64,000 nucleotides of DNA from an uncultured Nitrospirota bacterium. GTDB taxonomy: Bacteria > Nitrospirota > Thermodesulfovibrionia > Thermodesulfovibrionales > JdFR-85. The notes below the pieces were generated by a model. The model was given only the letters and a program-made list of their open reading frames with translations, searched no databases and was not told the origin of the DNA. Below, piece by piece: positions 222 to 63,406 of the stretch. Position 1 is the first letter of the stretch, and every line of letters begins with the position of its first letter. Position numbers and translations under genes: made by a program. The DNA lies in NCBI GenBank assembly GCA_964515925.1, contig CAZEYP010000001.1, positions 22,718 to 86,717 of the forward strand, written 5' to 3'.

Positions 222-274
222 TGATTTCAGATTTTAGATTTCAGATTTTAGATTTCAGATTTTAGATTTATGAT
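222..274 (+). repeat. Tandem heptad array NAGATTT (about 7 units) in the pilB-pilT spacer
   Basis: Reads tgattt cagattt tagattt cagattt tagattt cagattt tagattt atgat. The same word family recurs at 21547, 24474, 48475, 59842 and 63355, and on the reverse strand at 50794. Confidence 0.9.
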
Positions 275-291
275 ATAGGAGTTGGGAAACT

Positions 292-1404
292 ATGGCAACG
301 CTTTATGATTTTTTAAAGATGATGATCCAGCAAAATGCCTCTGACCTGCACATAACAACAGGGAGTCCACCAAGATTAAGAATTGATGGAAAGTTAAGGG
401 CTATCGACCATCCACCACTGACACCTGCTGATACCAAGGCACTCTGCTACAGTATTCTTACTGATGCCCAGAAACACAGGTTTGAGGAAAACAACGAGCT
501 TGACCTGTCCTTTGGTGTGAAGGGACTGAGCCGTTTCAGAGCAAATATCTTCATGCAGCGTGGTGCTGTGGCAGGTGCATTCAGGACAATTCCCTTTAAT
601 ATCAGAACATTTCAGGAGCTGGGGCTTCCAGAGATAATTAATGAGCTCGTTAAAAAGCCAAGGGGCCTTATACTGGTAACAGGGCCCACTGGCTCTGGAA
701 AGACCACCACCCTGGCAGCCATGATTGACCGTATCAATAATGAAAGAGAAGAACACATCATAACCATAGAAGACCCTATTGAGTATCTTCATCCCCACAA
801 GAAATGCCTTGTAAACCAGAGAGAGGTTACAGCAGACACTGCCTCGTTCCACGATGCCCTTCGGTATATCTTAAGACAGGACCCCGATGTTGTGCTTATT
901 GGTGAGATGAGGGATCTGGAGACCATCGAGGCTGCTCTCAGGGTTTCTGAGACAGGACATCTGACTCTGGCAACACTTCATACTAACTCTGCCATTCAGA
1001 CCATTAACAGGATTATAGATGTCTTTCCTCCTCATCAGCAGGACCAGGTGAGGGTGCAGCTTTCCTTTGTGCTTGAGGGTATTATTGCCCAGCAACTTAT
1101 TCCACGCAGAGATGGAAGGGGGAGGGTACTGGCCGTTGAGGTCCTGGTTCCAAACCCTGCTATCCGAAACCTTATCCGTGAGGACAAGGTTCATCAGCTC
1201 TATTCAATGATGCAGACAGGACAGGCAAAATTTGGGATGCAGACCATGAACCAATCACTCTATGAGTTATATACAAGAGGGCTCATATCCTATGAGGATG
1301 CCCTTGGAAGGTCACCGGTTCCAGATGAGCTGATTAACATGATTCAAAAAGGCGCTCCAGGTGCTCCACATATGCGGAATACCGCGCAGCCAAGGAGGTA
1401 TTAA
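292..1404 (+). CDS. pilT: Twitching motility (pilus retraction) ATPase PilT
   Basis: 370-aa ORF with Walker A GPTGSGKTT, Walker B region VVLIGEMRD and His box TGHLTLATLHT. The N-terminal LHITTGSPPRLRIDG is typical of PilT. Confidence 0.9.
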   Translation: MATLYDFLKMMIQQNASDLHITTGSPPRLRIDGKLRAIDHPPLTPADTKALCYSILTDAQKHRFEENNELDLSFGVKGLSRFRANIFMQRGAVAGAFRTIPFNIRTFQELGLPEIINELVKKPRGLILVTGPTGSGKTTTLAAMIDRINNEREEHIITIEDPIEYLHPHKKCLVNQREVTADTASFHDALRYILRQDPDVVLIGEMRDLETIEAALRVSETGHLTLATLHTNSAIQTINRIIDVFPPHQQDQVRVQLSFVLEGIIAQQLIPRRDGRGRVLAVEVLVPNPAIRNLIREDKVHQLYSMMQTGQAKFGMQTMNQSLYELYTRGLISYEDALGRSPVPDELINMIQKGAPGAPHMRNTAQPRRY

Positions 1405-1452
1405 TGATAAAAAAACGGGGAGAAGGCTCTCTCCAGAAAAAAGGAGGGGTAA

Positions 1453-2658
1453 GTGGCCACCGTATTTCAATGGTCAGGGCGTAACGCAAGAGGCTTAACA
1501 GAGTCGGGTGAGATTGTAGCTGGCTCAAAGGAAGAGGTTATTGCCCAGCTCAGAAAAAGAAATATCGTTCCCACCGCAATAACAGAGAAAAAGAAGGCAA
1601 AGAGGTCGCTGTCTTTTGGAGGAATAAAAGACAAAGACATAGTTGTTTTTACAAGGCAGTTTGCCACCATGATAGATGCTGGTCTGCCTCTTGTTCAGGC
1701 CCTGGAGATCTTATCCACACAGGTTGAAAACAAAAAACTTGCCAGTGTCCTATCCCAGATAAAACTTGATGTGGAGGCAGGCTCTACATACGCAGATGCC
1801 CTGAGAAAGCACCCAAAGGTGTTCAGTGAGCTTTATGTGAACATGGTGGCAGCAGGTGAAGCTGGCGGTATCCTTGATACCATTCTTGCGAGACTTGCTG
1901 CATATATTGAAAAGTCAATGAAGCTGAAGAAAAAGGTAAAGGGTGCGATGGTCTATCCTGCCGTGGTTACGGTGGTTGCTGTGCTGGTGGTTACTATAAT
2001 TATGATATTTGTTGTTCCTACCTTTACTAAGATGTATGCAAGTCTGGGTGGAACCCTGCCTCTTCCAACCAGGATAACTGTTGCAGCAAGTAATTTTATT
2101 GCAGGTGTTGGAGGCTTAATAATTCTTGGTATACTGATTTTTTTAGCTGTGTTAATTGTTCAGATGAGAAAAACCGACAGGGGTAAATATATTATTGATA
2201 AAATCCTATTATCATTTCCCATTTTCGGGCCTATAATCCAGAAGGCAGCAATAGCCAAGTTTACAAGAACCCTTGGCACCCTTACAAGCAGTGGTGTCCC
2301 TATTCTGGATGGTCTTGACATTACTGCAAAGACTGCAGGCAACAAGGTTATTGAGAAGGCCATATACGAGGTTCGACAGGCTGTGTCAGAAGGTAAGACC
2401 ATATCTGAACCACTTATGAAGACAAAGGTCTTCCCTCCCATGGTCAATCACATGATAGCAGTGGGTGAATCTACAGGTGCCCTGGATGCAATGCTTGGTA
2501 AGATTGCAGACTTTTACGACGATGAAGTGGATACCGCAGTTTCTACCCTTACATCTCTGATTGAGCCTTTTCTGATGGTGTTCCTTGGTGGCACAGTAGG
2601 CTTTATTATTGTCTCAATGTATATGCCTATCTTCAAGATGGGACAGTTAATAAAGTAA
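1453..2658 (+). CDS. pilC: Type IV pilus platform protein PilC (GspF family)
   Basis: 401-aa ORF with a duplicated GspF/T2SSF domain and hydrophobic TM segments. Its position after pilB-pilT fits. Confidence 0.9.
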   Translation: MATVFQWSGRNARGLTESGEIVAGSKEEVIAQLRKRNIVPTAITEKKKAKRSLSFGGIKDKDIVVFTRQFATMIDAGLPLVQALEILSTQVENKKLASVLSQIKLDVEAGSTYADALRKHPKVFSELYVNMVAAGEAGGILDTILARLAAYIEKSMKLKKKVKGAMVYPAVVTVVAVLVVTIIMIFVVPTFTKMYASLGGTLPLPTRITVAASNFIAGVGGLIILGILIFLAVLIVQMRKTDRGKYIIDKILLSFPIFGPIIQKAAIAKFTRTLGTLTSSGVPILDGLDITAKTAGNKVIEKAIYEVRQAVSEGKTISEPLMKTKVFPPMVNHMIAVGESTGALDAMLGKIADFYDDEVDTAVSTLTSLIEPFLMVFLGGTVGFIIVSMYMPIFKMGQLIK

Positions 2659-2666
2659 TTTGGCGA

Positions 2667-2800
2667 GACCCTTCGCTTTGCTCAGGGTGACTTCTGATTC
2701 TATTTTGAGGGTAAAAGCCGTCATCCTGAGGCCAAAGGCCGAAGGATCTAAAACAAAGGCAACGAAACTGAGGGGATGTTTCGCTGTCGCTCAACATGAC
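2667..2800. repeat. Three copies of a 25-29 nt word (consensus about GTCAYCCTGAGC..GCGAAGGATC) in alternating orientation, forming a hairpin
   Basis: 2667-2691 gacccttcgctttgctcagggtgac is close to the reverse complement of 2720-2748 gtcatcctgaggccaaaggccgaaggatc. A third copy lies at 2775-2800 and a fourth at 28437-28461. Confidence 0.8.
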
Positions 2801-2980
2801 AGATTTACGGTGAAAGGATGCATATAGAGTTGCAATGCCTTGATTGCCAAGGGATTGAGAATTATTTAACAGCCTTATTCAGGATTTAGGATTTATGAGA
2901 ATGATAAAAGACGGCCCAATAACTCAATAACAAAGCCTAATTCCTCTACCCCATTCAGTGTTTGACTTTTTAAGGACTCT

Positions 2981-14396: not shown

Positions 14397-14427
14397 GTGT
14401 TGAGTTTTGAGTTTTGAGTGTTGAATG
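14397..14427 (+). repeat. Heptad array GAGTTTT (left arm of an IVS-like element)
   Basis: gtgttgagttttgagttttgagtgttgaatg is nearly identical to 16973-17003. Confidence 0.85.
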
Positions 14428-15525: not shown

Positions 15526-15580
15526 ATACATCATCATTTACCTACTAAACCAATATACCAATAACCAATTAACTAATTTC
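15526..15580 (+). repeat. G-free CA-rich word array (ACCAATA type) between the acsD stop and the acsC Shine-Dalgarno
   Basis: 55 nt with no G (hand count): ..cctactaaaccaatataccaataaccaattaactaatttc. It is followed by GGAGG at 15581-15585. Confidence 0.85.
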
Positions 15581-16936: not shown

Positions 16937-16938
16937 AA

Positions 16939-17090
16939 CAGGGAGCAGGGCATAGGGGGCAGGGTGTAGTGAGTGTAGAGTTTTGAGTTTTGAGTGTTGA
17001 GTAAAAGCATAACTTAATAATTCAGCACTCAACAATATACATTAAAAACTTTTAATTCCCTGCCCACTACACGCTACACCCTACACCCTA
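16939..17090 (+). repeat. Composite imperfect inverted repeat: G/T-rich arm, short loop, C/A-rich arm
   Basis: The left arm is cagggagcagggcatagggggcagggtgtagtgagtgtagagttttgagttttgagtgttgagt. The right arm is actcaacaatatac...ccctgcccactacacgctacaccctacacccta. It starts 3 nt after the acsC stop. Confidence 0.85.
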
Positions 17091-17242
17091 TATTATTTGT
17101 AATTTAAATCGGTCAATTAAGTAAGTTGACTTTTATAAAGCATTTAGTTTAAAAATTAGGTATAGCCCTTAATCCCGTCTTTAAGAAAAAAAGGCGGGAT
17201 TTAATTATTTTAAAAAAGACAATAAACACAGAGGAGGTTCAG

Positions 17243-19456: not shown

Positions 19457-19460
19457 AACA

Positions 19461-19538
19461 GGGTTTAGGGAGTAGCGTATAGGGTGTATAATTGAACGCA
19501 TAAACCCTAAAACACAACTAACGCTATAAACGCAAAAC
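19461..19538 (+). repeat. Word-repeat spacer with a short hairpin between acsB and cooS
   Basis: The sequence is cagggtttagggagtagcgtatagggtgtat aattgaacgc ataaaccctaaaacacaactaacgctataaacgc. tagggtgtat pairs with ataaacccta (9 of 10). Confidence 0.7.
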
Positions 19539-19551
19539 TTTGGAGGTAAAA

Positions 19552-21546: not shown

Positions 21547-21581
21547 AAGATTTCAGATTTATGATTTGAGATTTTAGATTT
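21547..21581 (+). repeat. Tandem heptad array NAGATTT (5 units)
   Basis: aagattt cagattt atgattt gagattt tagattt runs straight into the SD GGAGG of the next gene. Confidence 0.85.
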
Positions 21582-22077: not shown

Positions 22078-22080
22078 TAG

Positions 22081-22122
22081 TTTAACTCAACACTAACCAC
22101 TCATAACTAAACACTTAATTTT
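22081..22122 (+). repeat. G-free CA-rich word array 5' of the next SD
   Basis: tttaactcaacactaaccactcataactaaacacttaatttt is 42 nt with no G. It is followed by GAGGAGG. Confidence 0.8.
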
Positions 22123-24473: not shown

Positions 24474-24618
24474 TTTTAGATTTGAGATTTAAGATTTCAG
24501 ATTTAAAAGCTCTGTAAGCGCTGTGTTCTCTGTGGTTAAAATAGAAGAAGTGCATAAGTTTGGAAAATTGGGATTTGGAATTTGTTTAGAAATTAGGGTT
24601 TAGAAATTAGAATTTTTA
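24474..24618 (+). repeat. Composite spacer element: NAGATTT heptads, then NNCTCTGTG nonamers, then GGAATTT/AGAAATT words
   Basis: The sequence is tttagatttgagatttaagatttcagatttaaaagctctgtaagcgctgtgttctctgtggtt...ggaaaattgggatttggaatttgtttagaaattagggtttagaaattagaattttt. It is homologous to 59829-59967 and partly to 48466-48563. Confidence 0.85.
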
Positions 24619-25259: not shown

Positions 25260-25300
25260 TCTATTAACTAATAAACCAATATACCAATAACAACTTTTTA
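25260..25300 (+). repeat. G-free CA-rich word array 5' of the SD
   Basis: tctattaactaataaaccaatataccaataacaacttttta is 41 nt with no G. GGAGG follows at 25301. Confidence 0.8.
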
Positions 25301-27595: not shown

Positions 27596-27602
27596 GCTGT
27601 AC

Positions 27603-27669
27603 GGAAGTCTGAAGTCGGAAATCAGAATATGTTATCTGACCTCCGACCTCTGACCTCTGTCCTCTGTCC
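27603..27669 (-). repeat. Inter-tRNA spacer hairpin built from heptads (CTGACCT array versus GAAGTC/GAAATC array)
   Basis: 27603-27626 pairs with 27635-27658. There are 18 Watson-Crick pairs on either strand, plus 4 further G:U pairs only in the minus-strand (tRNA-sense) RNA. Confidence 0.8.
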
Positions 27670-28427: not shown

Positions 28428-28504
28428 TTCCTCGCTGTCATTCTGAGCGAAGAGAAGAATCTTAAAAACAGGGAGTAGGGGGTAGTTAAAATACCTACAC
28501 CCTG
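28428..28504 (+). repeat. Two small hairpin words in the leader: a GTCATTCTGAGCGAAGAGAAGAATC copy and a minimal CAGGGAGTAGG...CCTACACCCTG hairpin
   Basis: 28437-28461 matches the 2720-2748 word family. In 28469-28479 versus 28494-28504, 10 of 11 positions pair. Confidence 0.8.
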
Positions 28505-28553
28505 AAGTTTAGAATTTATATTTGGTAGTTTGTGCTGAAATCCACTGATATTT

Positions 28554-28608: not shown

Positions 28609-29286
28609 ATGAAGAGAGCCTTACTATCCACGGTGTTCTTAATTGTTCTTACAGCCACATCATATGCAGCGCCATCAATTCTGTTTACCGAGGAAAAACA
28701 CGACTTTGGAGAGGTTAAGCAGGGGGATAAGCTGGAGTATGAATTTCACTTCAAAAACATAGGGGATGAAACACTTATTATCAAAAAGATCACCGCATCC
28801 TGAGGTTGCACTGCAACGATGGTCAGTTCAGACCATCTGGGCTCTGGCGAGGAAGGCACTATAAAGGCCACTGTAGACACAAGAAGAAAAAGGGGAAGGA
28901 TAGTAAAGACCGTACAGGTAAAAACCAATGACCCTCAAAGACCGCTGGTTATCCTGAAACTCATGGCAAATGTTAAAGACCCCTTTCATGCTGCTGCGCA
29001 CGAACCAGATGCCATTTTTAAAACTCCCTGCAGAAGCTGTCATGTGGACAGAGGAGTTGGAAGAACAGGAGCTGCACTATTCAGGGCAGACTGTATGATG
29101 TGTCACAGAAGGGGAAGGGTTGGAAATGACCTGCTTCAGTTGAAAAAGCTCTCCTTTGAAGAGCTGACTCGTTCGATAGAAGAAGGTGTTAAGGGTACCA
29201 TAATGCCAGGGTTTGCATCTCGTGTTGGCGGCCCACTTACAGAGGCGCAGATAAGGTCACTCGTAAGATATATAAAGGGGCACTAA
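28609..29286 (+). CDS. Candidate selenoprotein: secreted DUF1573 domain (Sec at TGA 28801-28803) fused to a c-type cytochrome domain
   Basis: ORFs 28585..28803 and 28819..29286 are in the same frame (offset 234 nt). Readthrough gives ..ETLIIKKITAS-U-GCTATMV..GEEGTIKATVD..VQVKTNDP..LKLMANV, which is the DUF1573 pattern with U at the first Cys of SCGCT. The C-terminal part has CRSCH and CMMCH heme motifs and IMPGF. It has a signal peptide MKRALLSTVFLIVLTATSYA. The start is ATG 28609 after AGGAAAGGGG. Confidence 0.6.
28818..28837 (+). promoter_or_regulatory. SECIS-like hairpin downstream of TGA 28801
   Basis: gatggtc agttca gaccatc has a perfect 7-bp stem, and its apical loop AGUUCA contains GU. 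The loop starts 21 nt after the UGA. A second small hairpin, gttgc act gcaac, lies at 28805-28817. Confidence 0.5.
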
Positions 29287-42092: not shown

Positions 42093-42240
42093 GGTGAATT
42101 GGTATATTGGTGTAGTGGTGTAGTGGTGAAGGGGTGAAACAGGCTTCAGGCTATAGGCTTAAGGTTATGGGCAATGGATTAAGATGCGAATATCAAAAAA
42201 GCCAGATTAATAATTTAGTAATCCAATAATCTAATAACTT
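42093..42240 (+). repeat. Octamer word arrays: G/T-rich arm GTGNANTG, spacer, C/A-rich arm
   Basis: ggtgaattggtatattggtgtagtggtgtagtggtgaaggggtgaaac ... attaataatttagtaatccaataatctaataactt lies between the NuoF-like gene and vapB. Confidence 0.75.
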
Positions 42241-42292: not shown

Positions 42293-42514
42293 ATGAAAAC
42301 CACAGTTGATATTCCAGATGATGAGCTCAAAGAATTACTGAAAAACACCAGAGCAAAGACCAAGAAAGAGGCAATTCTTCAGGCAGTAAGGGAGTACAAT
42401 CGCAGGCAGAAACTCAAAAGGCTTGCAGATATGCTGGGTACCTTTGAGGATATAATCACACTGGAAGAACTCCAGAAGTTCAGGATGGACCATAAATGGC
42501 CCGACAGGATGTAG
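42293..42514 (+). CDS. vapB: Type II antitoxin, VapB family
   Basis: 73 aa starting MKTTVDIPDDELKELLKNTRAKTKKEAILQAVREY.. It overlaps the PIN gene by 19 nt. Confidence 0.8.
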   Translation: MKTTVDIPDDELKELLKNTRAKTKKEAILQAVREYNRRQKLKRLADMLGTFEDIITLEELQKFRMDHKWPDRM

Positions 42515-42885
42515 TGCTTGTAGATACTTCCGTATGGATTGAGGCATTGAGGGTAAAAGGTGATGCTGAGACAAAAGAAAGACTCAGGCAGTTGATATTG
42601 GAGGACAGGGCTGTTTGGTGTGACCTGGTGGTGCTTGAACTACTCAGCGGAATGAAGGGTGAGAAGGAGAAAAAGAAGATTAGGGAATACATAGAAGAGA
42701 TAAGGAGTCTTGAGATTAACAGCAAGGTCTGGCAAAGGGCTAAAGGGTTAGTTGTTTCCTGCAGGCAAAAGGGATTTACGGTGCCTGTAACAGACATTAT
42801 AATAGCAGCCTGTGGCCTGAGCCACGGGGTGCCCTTAATGTATAAAGACCGACACTTCGACATCATACTGAGGGAGGTTCTATGA
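42496..42885 (+). CDS. vapC: Type II toxin VapC (PIN-domain ribonuclease)
   Basis: 129 aa with PIN acidic residues in VLVDTSVWIE, ..LVVLELL.., VTDIIIAA and KDRHFD. Its stop TGA (42883-42885) overlaps the fdhA ATG (42882-42884). Confidence 0.85.
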   Translation: MARQDVVLVDTSVWIEALRVKGDAETKERLRQLILEDRAVWCDLVVLELLSGMKGEKEKKKIREYIEEIRSLEINSKVWQRAKGLVVSCRQKGFTVPVTDIIIAACGLSHGVPLMYKDRHFDIILREVL

Positions 42886-45560
42886 TTACACTTATGATAG
42901 ATGGTAAGTATGTTGAGGTTCCTGAGGGGACGACCATACTTCAGGCTGCCCGTGAGGCTGACATCTACATCCCCACCCTCTGCGACGACCCACGACTGGA
43001 GCCCTACGGTGCATGCAGGCTCTGCCTTGTTCAGGTAAAGGGTATGCCAAGGCCTGTTACTGCCTGCACCACACCTGTAAGTGAGGGGATGGAGGTTCAG
43101 ACCAGCAATGAACAGATAGAGCGTATACGTAGAACCATAGTGGAGCTACTTCTAAGCGACCATCCCAATGATTGCATGGTCTGTGAAAAGGCAGGTGACT
43201 GCACCCTTCAGGAGCTTGCCTATTTTTACGACCTCAGAAAGAACCGATTCTGGGGTGAACGCCGTCAGTACACAAAGCGGGATGCCAATCCCTTTATTGA
43301 GAGGGATATGGAAAAGTGTGTGCTCTGTGGTAAGTGTGTGCGGGTCTGTGAGGAGATTCAGGGTGTGGCTGCCATAGACATAGCCTACAGGGGATTCAAG
43401 GCAAAGGTATGCCCTCCCTTTGAAAAGGACCTTAACTGTGAGTTCTGCGGTCAGTGCGTAAGCGTCTGCCCCACAGGTGCACTTATCGGCAAGCAGTCCC
43501 TTGGAAAAGGAAGGCAGAAGGACATAAAGCGAGTTGATACCGTATGTCCCTATTGTGGTTGTGGCTGTAACATAACCCTTCATGTAAGCCGCAATGAGAT
43601 AATCAGGGTGACCTCTGATCCAGACAGCCATAACGAGGGCTGGCTCTGCGTAAAGGGCAGGTTTGGCTTCAGGTTCGTAAACAGCCCTGACCGCCTGAAA
43701 AAACCCCTTATCAGGCGTAACGGTGAGTTTGAGGAGGTCTCCTGGGATGTGGCCCTTGAGTATATAGCAGAGAGGCTTAAAAAGATAAAGAAAGAACATG
43801 GTGCAGATGCCATCGCCGGGCTCAGCTCTGCCCGTTGCACCAATGAAGAAAACTACCTCTTCCAGAAGTTTATGCGTGCCGCAATTGGCACCAACAATGT
43901 TGACCACTGTGCCCGTTACTGACACTCTGCAACGGTGGCCGGTCTGGCCACAGTGTTCGGCTCAGGAGCCATGACCAACTCCATTGCAGAGATTGAGGAC
44001 AACGACCTTCTGTTTGTCATTGGCTCTAACACAAAGGAAAACCATCCCATAGTGGCACTTAGGATGATAAAGGCAGTGCGCAGGGGGGCTAAACTCATCG
44101 TGGCTGACCCAAGGAAGGTTCCCCTTGTCAGGTTTGCCCATCTGTGGCTTCAGCACCGCCCTGGCACGGATGTGGCACTTCTTAACAGCATGATGCATGT
44201 GATTGTAAAAGAGGACCTTATAGACAGGGACTTCATAATAAACATGACCGAGGGCTTTGAAAAGGAGTTCCTTGAAAACCTCGAGCAGTATACCCCTGAG
44301 GTTGGTGAGAAGCTAACTGGTGTTCCAAAGGAAAAGATAGTGGAGGCTGCAAGGCTTTATGGCTCTGCCGAGAGGGCTGGCATTTACTACACCATGGGCA
44401 TTACCCAGCACAGCCACGGCTCTGACAATGTCTTCAGCATTGCAAACCTGGCACTTATGACAGGCAATTTAGGGAAACCCTCCTCAGGTGTTAACCCTCT
44501 CAGGGGGCAGAACAATGTGCAGGGCTCAACCGATATGGGCTGCTCACCAGACAGTTATCCAGGCTACCAGAAGGTCCATCTGCCTGCTGTAAAAGAGAAG
44601 TTTGAAAGGCTCTGGGGTGTAAAGCTCTCTGACAGGCCAGGACTTACTGCCTCGGAGATGCTCTTTGAGGCTGAGGCAGGAAAATTAAGGGCCCTTTACA
44701 TAATGGGTGAAAACCCGGTGCTCAGTGACCCTGATGTGGGGCATACGGTGAGGGCATTAAAATCCCTTGACTTCCTGGTGGTTCAGGACATATTCATGAC
44801 CGAGACAGCAGAGCTTGCCGATGTGGTGCTTCCAGCTGCAAGCTTTGCTGAAAAGGACGGCACCTTTACAAACACAGAGCGAAGGGTTCAGCGGGTAAGA
44901 AAGGCACTAAACCCACCAGGGGATGCCAGAGAGGACTCCTGGATTATCACCGAGTTAAGCAAACGAATGGGCTATGAGATGAACTATGCAAATATATCTG
45001 AGGTGTTCAGGGAGATAGGACAGGCCTGGCCAGCAGTTGCAGGGATAACCTACTCAAGGCTTGAGCACGGAGGGCTCCAGTGGCCCTGTCCAACGGTGGA
45101 CCACCCTGGAACTCCATATCTTTTTAAGGGTGGTTTCCCGAGAGGAAAGGGTAGATTTACCATAGTGAAATACCGCGACCCCATGGAGATGGTAAGTGAT
45201 GAATTCCCCTTTATCCTGACAACAGGCCGTCAGCTGTTTCAGTACCATACAGGCACCATGACAAGAAGGGTTCCACCTATAAACGAGGTTTCCCCTGGAC
45301 CCTATGTGGAGATAAATCCTGATGACGCCCTAACGCTTGGCATTGAGGATGAGCAGAAGGTAAGGGTTACATCAAAACGGGGTAGCATAGAGCTTAATGC
45401 AAGGCTTACTGACAGGGTGGAAAGGGGTCTTGTGTTTATCCCCTTTCACTTTAAAGAGGCAGCAGCCAATGTGCTTACAGACAGCAGGGCACTTGACCCA
45501 CTCTGTAAGATTCCTGAGTTTAAAGTCTGTGCTGTGAATGTGGAGAAGATAGTTAATTGA
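42882..45560 (+). CDS. fdhA: Selenocysteine-containing formate dehydrogenase alpha subunit with a NuoG-like N-terminal Fe-S extension
   Basis: ORFs 42882..43922 and 43935..45560 are one frame joined across TGA 43920-43922. The context ..[30 protein letters not shown] is the conserved FdhA/FdhF Sec/Cys active-site motif. It has N-terminal [2Fe-2S] and 4x[4Fe-4S] motifs plus MopB and MopB_CT domains. Confidence 0.92.
43923..43955 (+). promoter_or_regulatory. SECIS element of fdhA
   Basis: cact ctgcaacg gtggcc ggtct ggccac agtg has a 6-bp upper stem with apical loop GGUCU (like the E. coli fdhF loop) plus a 4-bp lower stem. It starts immediately 3' of the UGA. Confidence 0.75.
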
Positions 45561-45640
45561 ATTAATAGCGTTGGTAGTGTTGATTGGAGTTGGGTTAGGG
45601 TGTTTTTACTACTCCCTACACGCTACACCCTGAACCCTAA
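45561..45640 (+). repeat. Dispersed composite repeat, copy M (GCGTT words, conserved core, CNCCCTA heptads)
   Basis: attaatagcgttggtagtgttgattggagttgggttagggtgtttttactactccctacacgctacaccctgaaccctaa aligns with 57440-57520 and with the reverse complement of 50830-50910. Confidence 0.85.
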
Positions 45641-45690: not shown

Positions 45691-46149
45691 ATGGTTCAGA
45701 TCAATGATTTAAAAGAGCAGATATTATTGAAAGAACTAAACGACGATGAACTGAACATAATTGCTGAGAAGGTTCAGGAGCAAAGCTTTCCAATGGGGAA
45801 GTTAATCTTTATGGAGGGCGAAGAGACCAAGGGTATTTATCTTATAAAAAAGGGTAAGGTAGAGATATCAAAGACCACCCCTGATGGCTGGAAGCAAACA
45901 CTGGCTGTGTTTACTGATGGACATTTCTTTGGTGAGCTTTCGGTTATAGAAGACAAGAAAGAGCACGGTGCAATTGCCACAGCTATTGAGGATACCGATG
46001 CCTTTTTAATTAAAAAGGATGACCTGAAAAGTCTTGAAAAAAGCAACCCTGAGCTGATGTATAAGATTATGAAGACCATTGCCCGTGTGGCAAGCCACAA
46101 TGTGCATACGATGAATGAAAAACTGGTGAAGTTGTTGATTAGTTATTAG
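45691..46149 (+). CDS. Cyclic-nucleotide-binding domain protein (no DNA-binding domain)
   Basis: 152 aa with a CAP_ED beta-roll (GEETKGIYLIKKGKVEI, FFGELSVI). Confidence 0.75.
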   Translation: MVQINDLKEQILLKELNDDELNIIAEKVQEQSFPMGKLIFMEGEETKGIYLIKKGKVEISKTTPDGWKQTLAVFTDGHFFGELSVIEDKKEHGAIATAIEDTDAFLIKKDDLKSLEKSNPELMYKIMKTIARVASHNVHTMNEKLVKLLISY

Positions 46150-46180
46150 TGTAATGGTGTATTGGTGTAGTGGTATAGTG
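46149..46180 (+). repeat. Left (G/T-rich octamer) arm of the stem enclosing the four-helix-bundle ORF
   Basis: gtgtaatggtgtattggtgtagtggtatagtg pairs with 46598-46629 (27 WC plus 2 G:U of 32, hand-aligned). Confidence 0.8.
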
Positions 46181-46219
46181 GTAAATTGATGATAGGATGT
46201 TTTAGATAAATAATATATA

Positions 46220-46591
46220 ATGGGATTGGATGAGCTTGAGATATATGTTCTGGCAAGGCAGTTGAGCAGAGTTTTCTGGAAAGTATATGAAGGAATGGAC
46301 AATAGCATTAAATACAACATCGGGACACAGGCCCTTAGGTCTATTGATTCAATAGGAGCAAACATTGCTGAAGGATACGGTAGATATCATTATCTTGACT
46401 GTGTAAGGTTTTACTATAATGCCAGAGGATCTCTATGGGAAAGTTTACACTGGATAGAACTCCTATACGAAAGGGGTCTTTTAGAAGAACAGGTTTACAC
46501 ACAACTTACAGATGACCTTAACATACTCGTAAAAAAACTTAACAGCTTTATAAATTCAATAAAAAACAAAAAGGAAAACCTTAATAATTAA
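46220..46591 (+). CDS. Four-helix-bundle protein (23S rRNA intervening-sequence protein family, PF05635/TIGR02436 type)
   Basis: 123 aa. ..LRSIDSIGANIAEGYGRYHYLDCVRFYYNARGSLWESLHWIELL.. matches the family signature (SIxxNIAEGxGR ... ARGSxxE). Confidence 0.85.
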   Translation: MGLDELEIYVLARQLSRVFWKVYEGMDNSIKYNIGTQALRSIDSIGANIAEGYGRYHYLDCVRFYYNARGSLWESLHWIELLYERGLLEEQVYTQLTDDLNILVKKLNSFINSIKNKKENLNN

Positions 46592-46678
46592 AAAATACAA
46601 TACACTATTACACCAATACACCAATACACAAATATACCAATATACCAATATATTATTTTACTAATACACCAACATTAA
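46575..46678 (+). repeat. Right (C/A-rich octamer AYACCAAT) arm; a 104-nt stretch with no G
   Basis: ..caatacactattacaccaatacaccaatacacaaatataccaatataccaatatattattttactaatacaccaacattaa runs up to the AGGAGG of fhs. There is no G from 46575 to 46678 (hand count). Confidence 0.85.
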
Positions 46679-46688
46679 GGAGGTCATT

Positions 46689-48452
46689 ATGCCACTTGAT
46701 CCAACCAAGCATGCAGACTGGGAGATTGCCGAGGCAGCTGAAAAGAACATGAAGACTGTTTATCAGCTTGCCGAGGAGATGGGGCTTGAAAAGGAGGAGC
46801 TTCTGCCCCACGGTCATTATGTTGCAAAGGTTGACTACAAGAGCATTCTTAATCGTCTTTCAAGCCGTCCTGACGGAAAGTACATTGATGTAACCGCCAT
46901 CACACCCACCCCACTTGGTGAGGGTAAGTCAACCACCACAATCGGACTCCTTCAGGGTATGGGCAAAAGGGGAAAGAATGTTATAGCTGCCATCAGGCAG
47001 CCCTCTGGTGGCCCAACAATGAACATAAAGGGTTCTGCTGCAGGCGGAGGACTTTCTCAGTGCATTCCGCTTACACCCTTTTCACTGGGACTTACAGGAG
47101 ACATCAACGCAATAATGAATGCCCACAACCTTGCAATGGTTGCCCTTACTGCAAGGATGCAGCATGAGTTTAACTACAACGACGAGCAGCTTGCAAAGCG
47201 TAACCTCAAAAGACTAAACATTGACCCCCGCAATGTCCAGATGGGCTGGATAATGGACTTCTGTGCCCAGGCCCTAAGGAAGATAATCATCGGTATCGGT
47301 GGAAAGATGGATGGCTTTATGATGGAAAGCCGTTTCGACATCGCCGTTTCCTCTGAGGTGATGGCCATACTGGCAGTTGCAAAGGACCTTAAGGACTTCC
47401 GTGAGAGGATGGGCAGGATCGTTGTTGCCTACGACAAGCAGGGTAACCCCATCACCACCGAAGACCTCGAGGTTGCAGGTGCAATGACCGCCTGGATGGT
47501 TGAGGCACTGAATCCAAACCTCATGCAGTCCATCGAGGGTCAGCCCGTTCTGGTTCATGCAGGTCCATTTGCAAACATTGCTATCGGGCAGTCCTCAATC
47601 ATAGCCGACAGGGTGGGGCTTAAGCTTGCCGATTACCACATCACCGAAAGTGGTTTTGGTGCAGACATAGGGTTTGAGAAGTTCTGGAACCTCAAGTGCC
47701 GTTTTTCAGGACTGAAACCCCATGCTGCAGTTATCGTGGCAACCATAAGGGCACTTAAGTGTCACGGTGGTGCACCTGTTCCAGTGCCGGGAAGACCAAT
47801 TCCTGAGGAATACTCTGAGGAGAATGTGGAATGGGTGGAAAAGGGTTGTGAAAACCTGGTCCATCACATAAACACCGTAAGAAGGGCAGGCATTAACCCG
47901 GTGGTATGTATTAATGCCTTCTACACTGATACAAAGGATGAGATAGAAACAGTAAGAAGGATAGCCGAGCAGGCAGGAGCCCGTGTTGCCGTCAGTGAGC
48001 ACTGGCTCAAAGGCGGCGAGGGTGCACTTGAGCTTGCCGATGCAGTGATAGATGCCTGCGAAGACAGCAACAACTTTAAATTCCTCTATGAACTTAATGT
48101 TCCAGTCAGGAACAGGATTGAGATGATAGCAGAGCATGTCTATGGTGCAGATGGTGTGGAGTATACACCTCAGGCACTTCAGAAACTCAAGGCAATCGAG
48201 CAGGATTCAGAGCTCAGCCAGCTTGGCACCTGTATGGTCAAGACCCACCTCAGTCTTTCTGATAATCCAAGCATCAAGGGTGTTCCAAAGGGCTGGAAGC
48301 TCTTTGTAAGGGATGTGCTTATTTACAAGGGAGCAGGTTTCGTGGTTCCTGTGGCAGGTGACATCAAGTTGATGCCAGGTACATCCTCTGACCCGGCATA
48401 CAGAAGGATTGATGTGGATACAGAGACAGGTAAGGTAAAGGGCTTGTTCTAA
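46689..48452 (+). CDS. fhs: Formate--tetrahydrofolate ligase
   Basis: 587 aa with [15 protein letters not shown] (P-loop) and overall FTHFS family similarity. Confidence 0.93.
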
Positions 48453-48465: not shown

Positions 48466-48563
48466 GGGAGCGGGGATTTCGGATTTATGATTTTAGATTT
48501 TAGATTTCAGATTTAGATACTCTGTGTTCTCTGTGGTTTGTATCTTCAATGTCCCTGCTCCCC
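48466..48563 (+). repeat. Composite spacer element (NAGATTT heptads plus CTCTGTG nonamers) bracketed by gggagcgggga / tccctgctccc
   Basis: The sequence is gggagcggggatttcggatttatgattttagattttagatttcagatttagatactctgtgttctctgtggtttgtatcttcaatgtccctgctcccc. The outer 11 nt are complementary apart from one G:T. Confidence 0.8.
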
Positions 48564-50793: not shown

Positions 50794-51020
50794 AAATCCG
50801 AAATACGAAATCCTAATTTCTAAACATTACAGGGTGTAGGGTGTAGCGTGTAGGGAGTAACAAAAACACCCCAACCAAACCCCAATCAACGCTACCAACG
50901 CTATTAACGCAAAGAACGCAATTAACTCTATAAGCGCAAGCAACGCAAATAACTCAAAGAACGCAAAGAACCCGATAAACTCGATAAACGCAAAGAACGC
51001 AACTTAACGCAATCAACGCT
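50794..51020 (-). repeat. Large composite repeat inside the mla operon (sense = minus): about 14 nonamers NNNNGCGTT, conserved core, CNCCCTA heptads, NNGATTT heptads
   Basis: Reverse-complement reading gives gattgcgtt aagttgcgtt ctttgcgtt tatcgagtt ... aatagcgtt ggtagcgtt gattggggtttggttggggtgtttttgttactccctacacgctacaccctacaccctg ... agaaatt aggattt cgtattt cggattt. The core 50830-50910 matches 57440-57520 at 75 of 81 positions, in inverted orientation. Confidence 0.9.
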
Positions 51021-57194: not shown

Positions 57195-57361
57195 AGGATG
57201 ATGGTTTTCTGTAAGGGAGTGGAAAACTGGTTTTACTGTCTGAGGTGCCCCTATCTTTGTAGTAGCCAGTGTCCGATTGAGAGTAATGACCCTTTGCGTC
57301 TTTTGTCGCTTTACATAAAAGATGAGGCAACAACGGGGGAGGACAAGGGAAAGTTATTGCG

Positions 57362-57558
57362 TTGATTGCGTTAATAGCGTTTATTGCGTTCTTTGCGTTA
57401 ATCGGGATGATTGCGTTTATTGGGTTAATAGTGTTAATTGCGTTAATAGCGTTGGTAGCGTTGATTAGGGTTTGGATGGGGTGTTTTTGTTGCTCCCTAC
57501 TCCCTACTCCCTACACCCTGTCTTTTTTACTCCCTACACGCTACCCCCTACACCCTAA
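57362..57558 (+). repeat. Large composite repeat in the nrdJ leader: about 12 nonamers NNNNGCGTT, conserved core, CTCCCTA/CACCCTA heptads
   Basis: The sequence is gattgcgtt aatagcgtt tattgcgtt ctttgcgtt ... aatagcgtt ggtagcgtt gattagggtttggatggggtgtttttgttgctccctactccctactccctacaccctg ... ctccctacacgctaccccctacacccta. It ends 13 nt before the GGAGG of nrdJ. Confidence 0.9.
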
Positions 57559-59822: not shown

Positions 59823-59828
59823 AAAAGA

Positions 59829-59967
59829 CAGGGAGTAGGAATTTTAGATTTCAGATTTATGATTTTAGATTTAAAAACTCTGTGAACTCTGTGCACTCTG
59901 CGGTTTTGTAGTTAATTTGAAAAATTGGAATTTGGAATTTGTTCAGGATTTAAAAATTTCAGATTTA
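59829..59967 (+). repeat. Composite spacer element homologous to 24474-24618
   Basis: The sequence is cagggagtaggaattttagatttcagatttatgattttagatttaaaaactctgtgaactctgtgcactctgcggtt...ttgaaaaattggaatttggaatttgttcaggatttaaaaatttcagatttat. Confidence 0.85.
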
Positions 59968-60486: not shown

Positions 60487-60539
60487 AGTGTTAAGGTTAG
60501 CATTAATCAATAGACCGGGTGACAATCCTTTAACAACAC

Positions 60540-60569
60540 TTGACAACAGCGAGGTCTTTTTTTTATTAA
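60540..60569 (+). promoter_or_regulatory. Candidate promoter for the response-regulator gene
   Basis: TTGACA (60540-60545), an 18-nt spacer, then TATTAA (60564-60569). Confidence 0.3.
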
Positions 60570-60622
60570 TATTTGTTTCATTTATTTCAACGCTTTAAAT
60601 ATACACGAAAGAGGGGAGTGTT

Positions 60623-61033
60623 ATGAGGAAGAAAGTTATCGTAATCGAAGACGAAGACGGTATAAGAGAGTTTCTTGAGTATCTCTTAAAGGAGGTTGGA
60701 TTTGAGGTAAGCTCATATGGCACTGCCACGGCCTTTCTCTCTGATGAAAAGGTTTCTTCTTCAGAAATTGATTTTATGATTACCGACAACTATATGCCTT
60801 ACATGAAGGGGCTTGACCTTATAGAAACCCTTAAAAATAAAAGACCCTTTCAGGTAAAAAATGTGGCCGTAATCTCTGGCTCCTGGACAGAGGATGACCT
60901 TACAAGGGCAAACAAACTCGGTTGTAAAACCATCTCAAAGCCCTTTGGTATGGCAGAGATCCTTAGCTGGATTAATTCCTCTGCAGAGGAGAATTTTTCC
61001 CCATTTTTTGACACTATGGGACATATTACATAA
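60623..61033 (+). CDS. Single-domain response regulator (CheY-like receiver)
   Basis: 136 aa with acidic pocket IEDEDG, phospho-acceptor context FMITDNYMP, and a conserved S/T and K (ISKPF). Confidence 0.8.
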   Translation: MRKKVIVIEDEDGIREFLEYLLKEVGFEVSSYGTATAFLSDEKVSSSEIDFMITDNYMPYMKGLDLIETLKNKRPFQVKNVAVISGSWTEDDLTRANKLGCKTISKPFGMAEILSWINSSAEENFSPFFDTMGHIT

Positions 61034-61229
61034 TCTGCTCTCCTTCATGTAACACTCAATTTGTCTGAATAATTACTATTCTGCAGGTCTACCTGTCTTC
61101 CAAGGAAAATATCAGCACTTTTCTCTGTTTTTCTTCTTTTTTTGACTTGATCTTTTTGATTTCACCAAATGCAAAAATTTGCAAACATTGGTATAAATTT
61201 TGCTTATTAATTTATTAGAGGAGATGATT

Positions 61230-61646
61230 ATGGCAGAGTACAGAGAAAAAAACTATGGTGAGCCCTGGTGGGTGGAGCTTGAAGAGGTTGAACAGAGTGC
61301 GGTAAGGCTCAACTGGTGCTGCCGTCTGATACTGGAAGGTGGATTTGAGCAGTTTATTCAGGAAGAAATCGGAATTTATGTTTCTCTGAGGTTCAGTGTG
61401 AACTACTGTCCCCACTGTGGGAGGCCGCTGAAGGCTGATATCAGAGAAGATGCATCTGGTGCCTGCTGCAGGCTGTTTTCAGGTCTTGGCCTTGAGGGTA
61501 TTGTGTTTGAAGAGCCCTGTGTTGATGAGTTTGGCAGGGTTGAGTTCTCAGTTCACAGGCTATTTGCCAACTATTGTTTCAACTGTGGTAAAAGGCTAAG
61601 GAAGCAAAATCCACCGGTGAGACCTCACAGATGTATAGGGCATTAG
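61230..61646 (+). CDS. Cys-rich protein with an internal duplication (two CC...CxxC units), function unknown
   Basis: The ATG at 61230 after GGAG is preferred over the track's start at 61200. The halves ..WCCRL..FSVNYCPHCGRPLK and ..ACCRL..FSVHRLFANYCFNCGKRLRK align. The 3' end overlaps convergent truA by 4 nt. Confidence 0.5.
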   Translation: MAEYREKNYGEPWWVELEEVEQSAVRLNWCCRLILEGGFEQFIQEEIGIYVSLRFSVNYCPHCGRPLKADIREDASGACCRLFSGLGLEGIVFEEPCVDEFGRVEFSVHRLFANYCFNCGKRLRKQNPPVRPHRCIGH

Positions 61647-62431
61647 AGGCTGTCTCCGTAATGAATCCTATAAAGGTAAAGCCCCTCAGGTGGGGCTGTT
61701 GGCCCTGCTCGTGTGCGGTCACGGCTTTCTACGACCTCCTGCACCCAGGAGGCTGGATAGCGTCCAAGCCCCACCTCAATCAGGGTGCCCACCATGTTTC
61801 TGACCATGTATCTTAAAAAGGCATTTGCCTCAATATGAAAAACTATGAACCTCCCCCTGATGGGCATGGAGAGAAAGCCTATCTCTTCGGTTGCGGTGAT
61901 ATCAAGGCGCATAACCTCCCTTACTGTGGTTTTTGCAGAACAGCCTGTTGCCTGAAATGCCCTGAAGTCCTTTTTGCCCACAAGGTATGAGGCTGCCTCT
62001 TTCATTGCCTCCACATTGAGCTCCCTGCCCCTGTAGCATGCATACTTAAGTAGAAAGGGTGACCTTACAGGGGAGTTTTCCAGCACATAGATGTACTCCT
62101 TTGAGCTTGCGCTGAATCGGGGATGGAAGTCATCCGTGGTATATTCTGCCTCTTTGACCCTGATGTAGGGTGGAAGGATACCGTTTAAGGCACGCCTGAA
62201 TACCTCGGGGGGATGCTCAGAAGATGTGCTGAAGGCTGCTACCTGCTCTATTGCGTGAACTCCTCTGTCTGTCCTGCTTGCACCGACAACCCGTGTGTTT
62301 TCGCCTGTAAGCCTTCGGATGGCCTCTTCAAGAAGCCCCTGATAGGTGAGCCTGTCAGGCTGCACCTGCCAGCCCGAGGCATAACTGCCATCGTAGCTTA
62401 GCAGGAGTTTTATCTTCCTTCCTGATGTCAT
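61643..62431 (-). CDS. truA: tRNA pseudouridine(38-40) synthase
   Basis: 262 aa with the catalytic motif ASRTDRGVHA and TruA-type duplicated halves. Confidence 0.9.
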   Translation of the reverse strand: MTSGRKIKLLLSYDGSYASGWQVQPDRLTYQGLLEEAIRRLTGENTRVVGASRTDRGVHAIEQVAAFSTSSEHPPEVFRRALNGILPPYIRVKEAEYTTDDFHPRFSASSKEYIYVLENSPVRSPFLLKYACYRGRELNVEAMKEAASYLVGKKDFRAFQATGCSAKTTVREVMRLDITATEEIGFLSMPIRGRFIVFHIEANAFLRYMVRNMVGTLIEVGLGRYPASWVQEVVESRDRTRAGPTAPPEGLYLYRIHYGDSL

Positions 62432-62622
62432 ATCGCTATATTTTACACTGAAATCCTGTATAAAAGGATATTATATTTAAAGCAAATGCTGATAGAGAAA
62501 AACAAAACCATACCCAATAGCTTGCTGATGAGTAGTAGGGCTTATGGTCAAATATGTTTGCTCGCTATCAGTCTAAAATAATGTTAAAATAGATATTCAC
62601 AAATTTTCATCTGGAGAAAATA

Positions 62623-63354
62623 ATGCAGGAGAGACTACAAAAGATACTGGCAAGGGCAGGCATTGCCTCAAGGCGTAAGGCTGAGGAGCTTATCAGGGAA
62701 GGCCGTGTTACTGTAAACGGTCAGATTGCGACCCTCGGAATGAAGGCAGACCTTGAAACTGACTATATAAAGGTTGACGGCAAGCTTGTTCTGAAACCCG
62801 AACCCAAGACCTATATAATGCTTAACAAACCAAAGGGAGTTTTAACTACCCTTGAAGACCCTGAAGGCCGTCCAGCCATAAAGGAGCTTATAAAGGGTGT
62901 AAGGTTCAGGGTATATCCGGTTGGAAGACTGGATTTCTACACCGAGGGACTGCTGTTGTTGACAAATGATGGTGAGCTTGCCTATAGAATTATTCATCCT
63001 TCCTTTAAGGTTGACAAGACATATCTTGTTAAGGTCAAGGGCATTATTGAAGAAAAGGACCTTGAAAAGCTACGCAGGGGGATAAGGCTTGAAGATGGCA
63101 TAACTGCTCCGGCAAGGATAAAGAGAATAAGGATGCCAAAAACTGAAAAAAACTCCTGGCTTGAGGTGGTGATTCATGAAGGCAAAAAGCGACAGATCCG
63201 CAGGATGTTTCAACGGGTAGGGCATCCAGTGTTAAAGCTGAAACGGACAAAAATTGACGGCTTGAGCCTTGGGGATTTACCTGCGGGCAAGTGGCGTTAT
63301 CTTACCAACGAGGAGATAAAAAGGCTTAAGAAAAGTGTTAAAATAGACAATTAA
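62623..63354 (+). CDS. Pseudouridine synthase, RsuA/RluB family (S4 domain plus catalytic domain)
   Basis: 243 aa with the N-terminal S4 RLQKILARAGIASRRKAEELIREGRVTVNG and the catalytic motif PVGRLDFYTEGLLLLTNDGEL. Confidence 0.88.
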   Translation: MQERLQKILARAGIASRRKAEELIREGRVTVNGQIATLGMKADLETDYIKVDGKLVLKPEPKTYIMLNKPKGVLTTLEDPEGRPAIKELIKGVRFRVYPVGRLDFYTEGLLLLTNDGELAYRIIHPSFKVDKTYLVKVKGIIEEKDLEKLRRGIRLEDGITAPARIKRIRMPKTEKNSWLEVVIHEGKKRQIRRMFQRVGHPVLKLKRTKIDGLSLGDLPAGKWRYLTNEEIKRLKKSVKIDN

Positions 63355-63406
63355 TTTTAGATTTTAGATTTCAGATTTATGATTTCAGATTTTAGATTTA
63401 TGATTT
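63355..63406 (+). repeat. Tandem heptad array NAGATTT (about 7 units)
   Basis: tttagatttt agattt cagattt atgattt cagattt tagattt atgattt starts immediately after the stop codon. Confidence 0.9.

Follow-up and report, generated by a model that had tools for sequence, protein, structure and literature searches.

Tandem repeats of the short tandemly repeated repetitive (STRR) type have been known in bacteria for more than 30 years, with no function shown. The STRR sequences of heterocystous cyanobacteria, reportedly described by Mazel et al. in 1990, comprise several families of tandem heptanucleotides. The repetitive extragenic palindromes (REPs) of enterobacteria, and the bacterial interspersed mosaic elements (BIMEs) with them, lie in co-transcribed spacers, where they act as barriers to 3'-exonucleases and provide segmental mRNA stability; REPs are single palindromes of 20-40 nt, mobilised by the RAYT (TnpA-REP) transposase and marked by a conserved 5' GTAG. 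Here we analysed a stretch of 64,000 nucleotides from an uncultured bacterium of the Thermodesulfovibrionales (Nitrospirota; contig CAZEYP010000001.1), hereafter the window, whose intergenic spacers are filled with arrays of 7-, 8- and 9-nt tandem words. These arrays belong to the known but unexplained class of STRR sequences and long simple sequence repeats (SSRs); they are new for the Thermodesulfovibrionales and very dense, and the literature searched held no report of such arrays in Nitrospirota. On balance we think it probable that they represent a lineage-specific bloom of slippage-prone arrays of the STRR class, held in fixed orientation in co-transcribed spacers, in which inverted pairs form stems like those of REPs or of the intervening sequences (IVSs) of 23S rRNA, and unpaired arrays are tolerated linkers.

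The preliminary description of this DNA named the STRR sequences as the only analogue, but the same placement and strand rules have been published for Xanthomonas and Nostoc (PMC4692102), and related systems are found in PMC4679880 and PMC2700814. Rehm et al. (2015) studied the heptamers GGGAATC of Xanthomonas and GGGGAYT of Nostoc PCC 7120, in arrays of about 4 units that are concentrated between aligned open reading frames (ORFs), under-represented both within coding sequence and where ORFs diverge, mostly transcribed and found inside operons (pecE-pecF); they lie in sense within 50 bp of stop codons or overlapping them, or in antisense upstream of ORFs (PMC4692102). The AGGG/CCCT family of the window follows exactly these placement and strand rules: its arrays at 16940 and 19460 come after stop codons with the G-rich strand in sense, and the CCCT arrays at 45608, 57493 and 50831 (sense reading) come before start codons. 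Xanthomonas and Nostoc have one word family per genome, at loci reported to be genomically stable (PMC4692102), whereas the window holds at least eight families with periods of 7, 8 and 9, mostly not G-rich and often laid out as inverted pairs, and their turnover is fast. With the STRR sequences, which PMC4692102 cites as Calothrix heptanucleotides, the arrays share several tandem heptanucleotide families in many dispersed copies and a non-coding, often intercistronic location. The STRR words CCCCAGT, TTGGTCA and CAACAGT belong to cyanobacterial hosts, whereas words and phylum are different here, and none of these three (STRR1-3) was found among the arrays of the window; moreover, octamer and nonamer families and array-built hairpins fall outside the STRR definition.

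Two further systems come close. MacGregor (2015) described TAACTGA repeats in marine Beggiatoaceae, Cyanobacteria and Bacteroidetes. These heptamers form arrays of 2-6 units with a patchy distribution across phyla, which are intergenic, forward and directly upstream of start codons, including those of ribosomal-protein operons (PMC4679880). They consist of a single word that replaces the Shine-Dalgarno (SD) region, whereas the SDs here are intact and downstream of the arrays. The summary of Mrazek (2007) in PMC4679880 gives heptanucleotides as the commonest long SSRs. In Geobacter metallireducens, Aklujkar et al. (2009) reported GGACCGG x4 at 49 sites, GTTGCTYN x4 at 48 and MTYCTGA x5 at 16, mostly paired as hairpin-like inverted copies and read as sites for global regulators or as regulatory RNAs (PMC2700814). 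MTYCTGA resembles the CCTCTGA units of a tRNA spacer in the window, but the Geobacter arrays have a fixed 4-5 units and lie partly within genes, which is not so here.

The gene map of the window was based on ORFs, Pfam and ARAGORN. All eight word families of the preliminary description were recovered, by Tandem Repeats Finder and by direct reading, at the positions given for them or a few bases away. A periodicity scan of the window assigned 930 of 6261 intergenic bases to arrays (492 with period 7, 208 with period 8 and 230 with period 9) against 36 of 57739 coding bases, and found no arrays with periods 4-6 or 10-13. Since 50 dinucleotide shuffles of the spacers yielded 0 array bases, against 930 in the real sequence, the arrays behave as long SSRs do (units of 5-11 nt in runs beyond chance). 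An assembly artefact was ruled out by the identity of the window sequence in independent Joint Genome Institute (JGI) and Logan assemblies. Rfam at its gathering threshold matched only the three tRNAs of the window, which are on the minus strand.

In a census of spacers of at least 40 nt at a looser threshold, 16 of 28 co-directional spacers contained arrays (30% of bases covered), as against 1 of 9 convergent or divergent spacers (7.7% of bases), the single case being the 5' leader of nrdJ (Fisher p = 0.02). Arrays are thus enriched in co-directional spacers and 5' leaders and, with their 36 coding bases, share the aligned-ORF placement of the G-rich heptamers. The claim that they occupy almost every operon-internal spacer was right about the enrichment and overstated the frequency, which is 16/28 by threshold and about 19/28 by eye. 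One of the loci then listed as operon-internal, 27635-27669, lies between two tRNA genes and in no mRNA operon, and two others, 2881-2898 and 45565-45585, are just 2-3 units long.

Orientation was studied in the window together with about 10 kb of upstream flank recovered from the same organism in three JGI metagenomes, that is, in about 74 kb of one genome with most genes on one strand. The sense bias first noted for NAGATTT was confirmed and enlarged to 11 of 11 arrays for NNGATTT (p = 0.001), two of which belong to minus-strand operons and are both sense; no AAATCNN array of at least 3 units was seen in sense in the window and this extension. The extension contributed two plus-strand spacers with sense NNGATTT units and a minus-strand operon spacer in which sense N(A/G)GA(A/T)TTT heptads precede an AGGG/CCCT hairpin that lies immediately upstream of the SD. 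The orientation bias is therefore real; it tracks transcription and flips in both minus-strand operons. As for GCGTT, its long arrays are sense in 4 of 4 cases (3 of 3 in the preliminary description), but the family does have a complementary partner, a short AACGC array at 19511-19533. In the extension, the leader of a pilB/mshE-like gene also contains an array of 15 GCGTT nonamers, which the JGI gene caller turned into an 86-aa ORF with no Pfam match (L248 7738-7998); nonamer arrays hold a reading frame open and so give rise to spurious ORFs. G-U self-pairing of NAGAUUU as the cause of the sense orientation was considered and rejected. The five-unit NAGATTT array at 21547..21581 (plus strand, as are all features below unless stated), which extends from the stop codon of cooS into the following gene's SD, does pair with itself in this way in the sense RNA only (-13.9 kcal/mol); one array beat its shuffles (z -3.6) and three did not.

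The arrays are unstable at the DNA level, an aspect that the preliminary description had set aside. Contigs of the same organism from different samples were 99.9% identical, with 3 substitutions in 31 kb, and the only indels in these 31 kb were whole units inside arrays: one heptad GTAGGGG of an AGGG array (L248 5310 vs L249) and one nonamer TTGCGTTCT of the nrdJ-leader array (L251 4762 vs L252; window ~57385). The two length variants, one of 7 and one of 9 nt, are the whole-unit changes in copy number that slippage of long SSRs produces, and they lie in a spacer between aromatic amino-acid biosynthesis genes and in the nrdJ leader. Three further loci (L001-L003) were identical to the window, leaving no differences to read. 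Turnover between relatives was followed in the orthologous spacers of the acs operon. Homologues of AcsB bear names such as Thermodesulfovibrionales, Candidatus Magnetoovum and Candidatus Magnetomonas, which places the window in an uncultivated lineage of the Nitrospirota. The nearest relative, whose AcsB is 92% identical, also shows arrays in these spacers, but their words or copy numbers are mostly different: its acsB-cooS spacer carries CGTTATT octamers and their complement, against AGGG heptads and AACGC nonamers in the window, and in one of its spacers only two NAGATTT units stand against five in the window. In relatives with 79-86% identity, the orthologous spacers measure 11-89 nt, are mostly a bare SD and mostly lack arrays. 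The arrays are thus recent expansions into ancestrally minimal spacers, and they are probably not conserved regulatory sequences, given that the words differ in the 92% relative and are mostly absent from distant ones.

This history bears on the stop-to-SD placement that had been taken as evidence for function. Arrays do start 0-8 nt after a stop codon, as described, and some contain the stop codon itself (TGATTTTAG, TAATTTAAG, TAGTGTAATGG); their ending at the next SD holds for about half of them (no more than 25 nt from the next start codon) and not for the rest. Because the ancestral spacers are minimal, with only 11-65 nt in orthologous spacers of relatives, any expansion touches both stop and SD, so that this placement is largely geometric and counts as weak evidence for function.

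Local slippage is only part of the origin of the vocabulary. A composite element made of GCGTT nonamers, the core GGTAGCGTTGATTGGGGTTTGGTTGGGGTGTTTTTGTTACTCCCTAC and ACACCCT heptads is present in 3 copies in the window, which share about 90 nt at about 90% identity, non-repetitive linker included; a fourth copy lies in the flanking extension, and the GCGTT element is sense in 4/4. The copy at 45565..45640 is short (GCGTT nonamers, GGGTGTTTTT core, CTCCCTACAC heptads). In the minus-strand mlaF-mlaD spacer (50794..51020), the sense strand reads about 15 GCGTT nonamers and then the conserved core, after which CTCCCTACAC heptads and degenerate NNGATTT heptads lead up to the SD, and in the nrdJ 5' leader (57356..57558) 11-12 GCGTT nonamers and the conserved core are followed by two CNCCCTA heptad blocks. 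NAGATTT arrays are also trailed three times by NNCTCTGTG nonamers: at 24474..24612, where NAGATTT x5 runs over a TGA stop and the nonamers (24509-24537) are followed by GGAATTT/TTAGAAA units (24558-24612); at 48475..48538 after fhs (NAGATTT x6, NNCTCTGTG x2); and at 59842..59905 after nrdJ, where TAAAAAAGACAGGGAGTAGG precedes NAGATTT x4 and NNCTCTGTG x3. These dispersed copies and pairs indicate that the vocabulary comes in part from dispersal and not from local slippage alone. A scan of metagenomes with the composite core AATAGCGTTGGTAGNGTTGATT gave 0 matches.

Structurally, the arrays form two classes: inverted pairs, which give long stems of slippable register, and unpaired arrays, which are sense only. 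Many families are complementary partners of each other laid out as such pairs. After acsC, a 160-nt hairpin element (16937..17095; minimum free energy (MFE) -53.5 kcal/mol, z -5.4 against shuffles) has outer arms of 4 AGGG heptads (16940-16964) paired with CCCTACA heptads (17058-17090) and inner arms of GAGTTTT heptads (16975-17003) paired with CACTCAAC. The near-perfect hairpin of the tRNA-Lys/tRNA-Glu spacer (27596..27669, minus strand; -42 kcal/mol, z -7.7) sets GGAAGTC-type heptads against CTGACCT heptads. Smaller stems are found after acsB, in the acsB-cooS spacer (19457..19540), where AGGG/AGCG heptads pair with AACGC/AACCC nonamers (MFE -21 kcal/mol), and at 28474..28512, a small AGGG/CCCT hairpin (AACAGGGAGTAGGGGG...CCTACACCCTG). 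The unpaired arrays of sense orientation only (NAGATTT, GCGTT, ACCAATA, CTCTGTG) have weak structure or none, and ACCAATA arrays adjoining an SD on its upstream side are less structured than their shuffles; the ACCAATAN octamers at 15548..15578 adjoin the acsC SD upstream and are unstructured in the sense RNA, and those at 25266..25290 also lie upstream of an SD. Array-built hairpins recur in relatives with unrelated words, for instance as a nonamer hairpin in the acsC-acsB spacer of Magnetomonas, and occur in other phyla too. Palindromes in co-directional spacers, the hallmark of REPs and BIMEs, are confined to the paired class. REPs are single palindromes whereas the elements here are tandem arrays, and GTAG/CTAC recurs by eye in several of their words (AGGGTGTAG, GGTGTAGTG, GGTAGCGTT).

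Whether the acs cluster is one uninterrupted transcript may be questioned, given that the 306-nt spacer between acsC and acsB contains, downstream of its array hairpin, another hairpin with a T-run at 17171-17201. This T-run hairpin is the one terminator-like site that falls in an array spacer in a promoter and terminator scan of 13-29 kb, where such sites were no commoner than in shuffles.

One of the stems encloses a gene. The 123-aa ORF at 46220..46591 belongs to PF05635 ("23S rRNA intervening sequence protein"; Pfam E = 5.9e-24), a four-helix-bundle, Avd-like family, and is flanked by GTGTANTG octamers at 46147..46200 and CAATACAC octamers at 46598..46678. The global MFE fold of 46130-46700 pairs 46147-46190 with 46598-46680 to give a stem of some 45 bp whose loop contains the ORF, and the duplex of the two arms reaches -43.9 kcal/mol, against -25.4 +/- 3.6 for shuffles. 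The order fdhA, gene for a cyclic nucleoside monophosphate (cNMP)-binding protein, PF05635 gene, fhs is kept in relatives whose PF05635 proteins share 89%, 78% and 65% identity with that of the window, and in each of the three (L254, L255, L257) the gene has flanking arrays. The stem is kept in 4 genomes with compensatory words: in the 65% relative the words are GGTTATTG and CAATAACC, whose own duplex has -36.3 kcal/mol (z -6.8), while arms of this relative crossed with those of the other genomes gave -15 to -27 kcal/mol. Complementarity of the PF05635 stem is thus maintained in a divergent relative through compensatory word changes. A recent mobile insertion of the gene at this site was ruled out by the synteny kept down to 65% protein identity, and the family hidden Markov model run on six-frame translations found no PF05635 remnants in the other long spacers of the window. 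Avd, a protein of diversity-generating retroelements (DGRs), is a pentamer. PF05635 resembles this protein (PMC10053308).

The closest described counterpart is the IVS with an S23p/PF05635 ORF of Coxiella and Leptospira; in Coxiella it has a 28-bp terminal stem with the S23p ORF in the loop, is excised by RNase III and bears heptameric direct repeats in variable number next to the ORF (PMC4990558). The element of the window is similar in its size (about 430-540 nt), its complementary termini, its stem (about 45 bp versus 28 bp in Coxiella) and the PF05635 ORF in the loop. It differs in that the stem consists of octamer tandem arrays and in its site, which is the mRNA operon fdhA-cNMP-ORF-fhs, between the cNMP-binding gene and fhs in a formate dehydrogenase operon, and not a 23S rRNA helix.

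The association of PF05635 with arrays, of which the literature searched contained no description, is seen well beyond this lineage. In an independent sample of 18 PF05635 genes on PLSDB plasmids from six phyla (L260-L279), 16 had short tandem arrays, mostly heptads, on both sides within about 110 nt, and in 11-12 of these 16 the downstream array was the reverse complement of the upstream one. Duplex z scores were -10 in Planktothrix (AAATCGT/ACGATTT), -9 in Nostoc commune (GGAAGTC) and -6.5 on a Calothrix brevissima plasmid, whose words AGGGTGT/ACACCCT are found in the window too. The plasmid genes sit inside operons (hsdS|hsdR, RND adaptor|permease, cas10|cmr3, helicase|methylase), and in a stretch of 24 kb from a Treponema plasmid the sole heptad arrays are those in about 400 nt around the PF05635 gene. 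Array-seeded loci that contain a PF05635 ORF all show it bracketed by arrays (e.g. L038, L035, L162, L167, L189). Arrays greatly outnumber PF05635 genes, of which about 900 kb of array-seeded genome loci held just 2. The link could be read in three ways, with the arrays as element termini, as insertion targets or as binding sites of the protein. A wider version, which we put forward with considerable doubt, is that a widespread cassette of IVS type has inverted arrays as its terminal stems and PF05635 as its cargo, and that arrays without the ORF (STRR sequences, heptamer SSRs) are its non-autonomous derivatives or PF05635 binding sites. Such a cassette would insert into transcribed DNA: rRNA genes and operon-internal spacers, for instance hsdS|hsdR, cas10|cmr3, histidine kinase|response regulator and cNMP|fhs.

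Some words, namely AGGGTGT, NNCTCTGTG, GGAAGTC and GAGTTTT, are shared with distant taxa, which may or may not be more than their background frequency would give. NNCTCTGTG occurs as an inverted pair in Granulosicoccus (L086 6760-6910), AGGGTGT/ACACCCT hairpins on the Calothrix plasmid, and GGAAGTC in Nostoc commune. A metagenome scan with CTACACGCTACNCCCTNNACCCT (L128-L247) turned up, among the matches listed, bacterial AGGGTGT/ACACCCT hairpins on contigs of 37-71% GC; at least 24 of the 120 matches listed were long, one-sided CCCTACA/CCCTAAA arrays, which look like eukaryotic (algal) telomeric or subtelomeric repeats. The scan is unusable for orientation statistics, and telomere-like CCCTACA/CCCTAAA repeats are a trap for any pattern search after bacterial heptads. 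The motif AAGACAGGG recurs at array boundaries and ahead of PF05635 start codons.

Taken together, the arrays gain and lose whole units in DNA, turn over fast between close relatives and are in part spread as composite dispersed elements; with few exceptions they are kept, in fixed orientation, in non-coding stretches presumably transcribed along with genes. A bloom of such slippage-prone arrays of 7-, 8- and 9-nt words would have inflated the intergenic spacers. The filter on orientation and placement would act on the polycistronic mRNA. This is plausible in view of the orientation that follows transcription, the depletion in spacers that are not co-transcribed and the hairpins that recur at the same intercistronic sites with different words. 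Paired arrays might then behave like the terminal stems of 23S rRNA IVSs or like REP elements: they would be cleaved by RNase III or block 3'-exonucleases, so that segments of an operon are cut or stabilised; unpaired arrays would be tolerated linkers that leave the next ribosome-binding site accessible, and the word sequences themselves would not be conserved regulatory sites. The RNA-level role put forward in the preliminary description, for which orientation, enrichment in co-transcribed spacers, stems and compensatory words speak, is hence plausible for paired arrays and unproven for unpaired ones.

Several observations weigh against this explanation. Transcription of the arrays, their processing and their effects on stability are all things that we infer. 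The orientation sample covers about 74 kb of one genome, with most genes on one strand. When 120 genome loci from other phyla, seeded with GATTTNN x4, were examined for orientation, no sense bias was seen (18 sense and 28 antisense cases); the ORF calls were crude, and we do not take the result as refuting a lineage-specific bias. Most unpaired arrays are no more stable than their shuffles when folded, as is the case for ACCAATA and GTGTA octamers and for the majority of NAGATTT arrays. When 11 hairpins were folded in sense and antisense, the energies were nearly symmetric, with sense more stable in 8/11, and G-U versus A-C counts added no more than a weak trend, so that folding cannot separate an RNA-level role from DNA-level palindromes. 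Inverted DNA repeats can be homogenised without selection, their concerted evolution may mimic covariation, and fast turnover with unit polymorphism is what neutral slippage predicts.

Neutral or selfish DNA is indeed the main rival, a distinct possibility though not a likely one. Slippage, intrastrand template switching and gene conversion would make and homogenise both arrays and inverted partners with no RNA role, arrays would accumulate where they are least harmful, and the orientation bias would reflect mutational asymmetry or the purging of harmful orientations. Besides the unit indels between strains, this fits the different words in the same spacer of the 92% relative, the general lack of arrays in distant relatives, the strand symmetry of the hairpins, the missing sense bias across phyla, arrays lying in frame within ORFs of other genomes and Mrazek's slippage explanation, as summarised in PMC4679880. 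Such in-frame heptad arrays were seen in an aminoacyl-tRNA-synthetase-like ORF of a Thermodesulfovibrionales metagenome-assembled genome (MAG) and in a signal peptide of a deltaproteobacterial MAG (L005 176-260; L069 4085-4160). Harder to reconcile with neutrality are the 11/11 sense arrays that flip with the operon strand, the depletion of divergent and convergent spacers, which are equally non-coding, the retention of the PF05635 stem down to 65% protein identity and the recurrence of hairpins with unrelated words in the same acs spacers. The arrays might instead be multivalent sites for oligomeric nucleic-acid-binding proteins, with one unit per subunit as in TRAP and the PF05635/Avd-like family as prime candidate (or S1, Csp or CsrA-type proteins, as proposed for TAACTGA repeats). 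The array-flanked plasmid genes of six phyla, the flanking arrays at every array-seeded locus with PF05635, the Treponema plasmid, the typical array length of 3-7 units and the resemblance of PF05635 to Avd (PMC10053308) all agree with such sites; we nevertheless think them unlikely, as the 74 kb contain a single PF05635 gene but about 35 arrays, which represent eight word families or more, most arrays lack a nearby gene (2 genes per about 900 kb of array-seeded loci), and words change fast in orthologous spacers.

Two narrower proposals fare less well. A G-quadruplex or i-motif, as proposed for the GGGAATC and GGGGAYT heptamers, could underlie the AGGG/CCCT family: the array at 16940-16964, which follows directly on a stop codon, carries four G3 tracts separated by 4-nt loops on its sense strand, and so does the array at L248 5290-5365 (sense reading). 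These are the two arrays with four tracts; the other AGGG arrays, the majority, hold only 2-3 intact ones, a C-rich partner lies near nearly all of them, the predicted duplex (-53 kcal/mol) would outcompete the quadruplex, and the idea is silent on the other seven families, which makes it very unlikely. That the arrays are contingency loci, in which gain or loss of units alters spacer length or leader structure and switches the downstream gene (phase variation), is scarcely credible despite the unit polymorphism of co-occurring strains in the nrdJ leader and the aromatic amino-acid spacer. Phase-variable SSRs lie in ORFs or core promoters, whereas these arrays are neither in ORFs nor between -35 and -10 boxes; they occupy intercistronic spacers and leaders of housekeeping genes (Wood-Ljungdahl, tRNA, lipid transport) and not of surface or defence genes, and just two variants were seen in 31 kb.

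Seven NAGATTT heptads at 222..274, between a pilB/mshE-like gene and pilT, end 18 nt before the start codon, and seven more at 63355..63406 start at the stop codon of an rluB-like gene. GAGTTTT/GAGTGTT heptads (14397..14427) come right after the acsE stop codon, and degenerate AACACTN heptads at 22078..22120 correspond to three perfect AAACACT units in the 92% relative (L124). At 42093..42172, after a nuoF-like gene, GGTGTAGT octamers are followed by AGGCTNN heptads. Separate small dispersed repeats at 2667-2749 and 28434-28462 (GTCATYCTGAG...GAAGRATCT and GACCCTTCGCTTTGCTCAGGGTGAC types) are unrelated to the tandem arrays. Around these spacers, the gene map contains pilT, pilC, pilS and pilR; a Wood-Ljungdahl cluster at 13.5-27.3 kb with acsE, acsD, acsC, acsB, cooS, nuoEF-like and fdh-like genes; uppS-cdsA-dxr-rseP; mfd; a second nuoEF-like/fdhA cluster followed by fhs; mlaFEDAC on the minus strand; and nrdJ. 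In the second cluster, an in-frame TGA at 43920-43922 ('DHCARY*HSATVAGL') is a selenocysteine site that joins ORFs of 346 and 541 aa into one FdhA, a split also seen in relatives, and a vapBC toxin-antitoxin pair (42293-42885) lies between the nuoF-like gene and fdhA, the vapC stop overlapping the fdhA start. At 28609-29286, DUF1573 and cytochrome c domains in one frame are joined by an in-frame TGA (28801-28803, 'ITAS*GCTAT'), which we take to be the first Cys position of the conserved DUF1573 'SCGCT' motif; this may be a selenoprotein fusion split in two by gene callers.

To conclude, the window is an unusually dense case from a phylum new to this class of repeats. A single, well-understood set of operons (Wood-Ljungdahl, formate dehydrogenase, nrdJ) allows a comparison across three periods, eight or more word families, arrays with and without hairpins, strains that differ by single units and relatives at graded distances. 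For annotation, it means that nonamer arrays are miscalled as genes and that arrays break assemblies. The placement argument turns out to be largely geometric, and the published placement and strand rules reach beyond Proteobacteria and Cyanobacteria. PF05635 and its flanking arrays form a concrete protein-repeat pair for a family unexplained outside DGRs. If the cassette interpretation were true, repeats unexplained since 1990 would gain both an origin and a partner protein open to testing.

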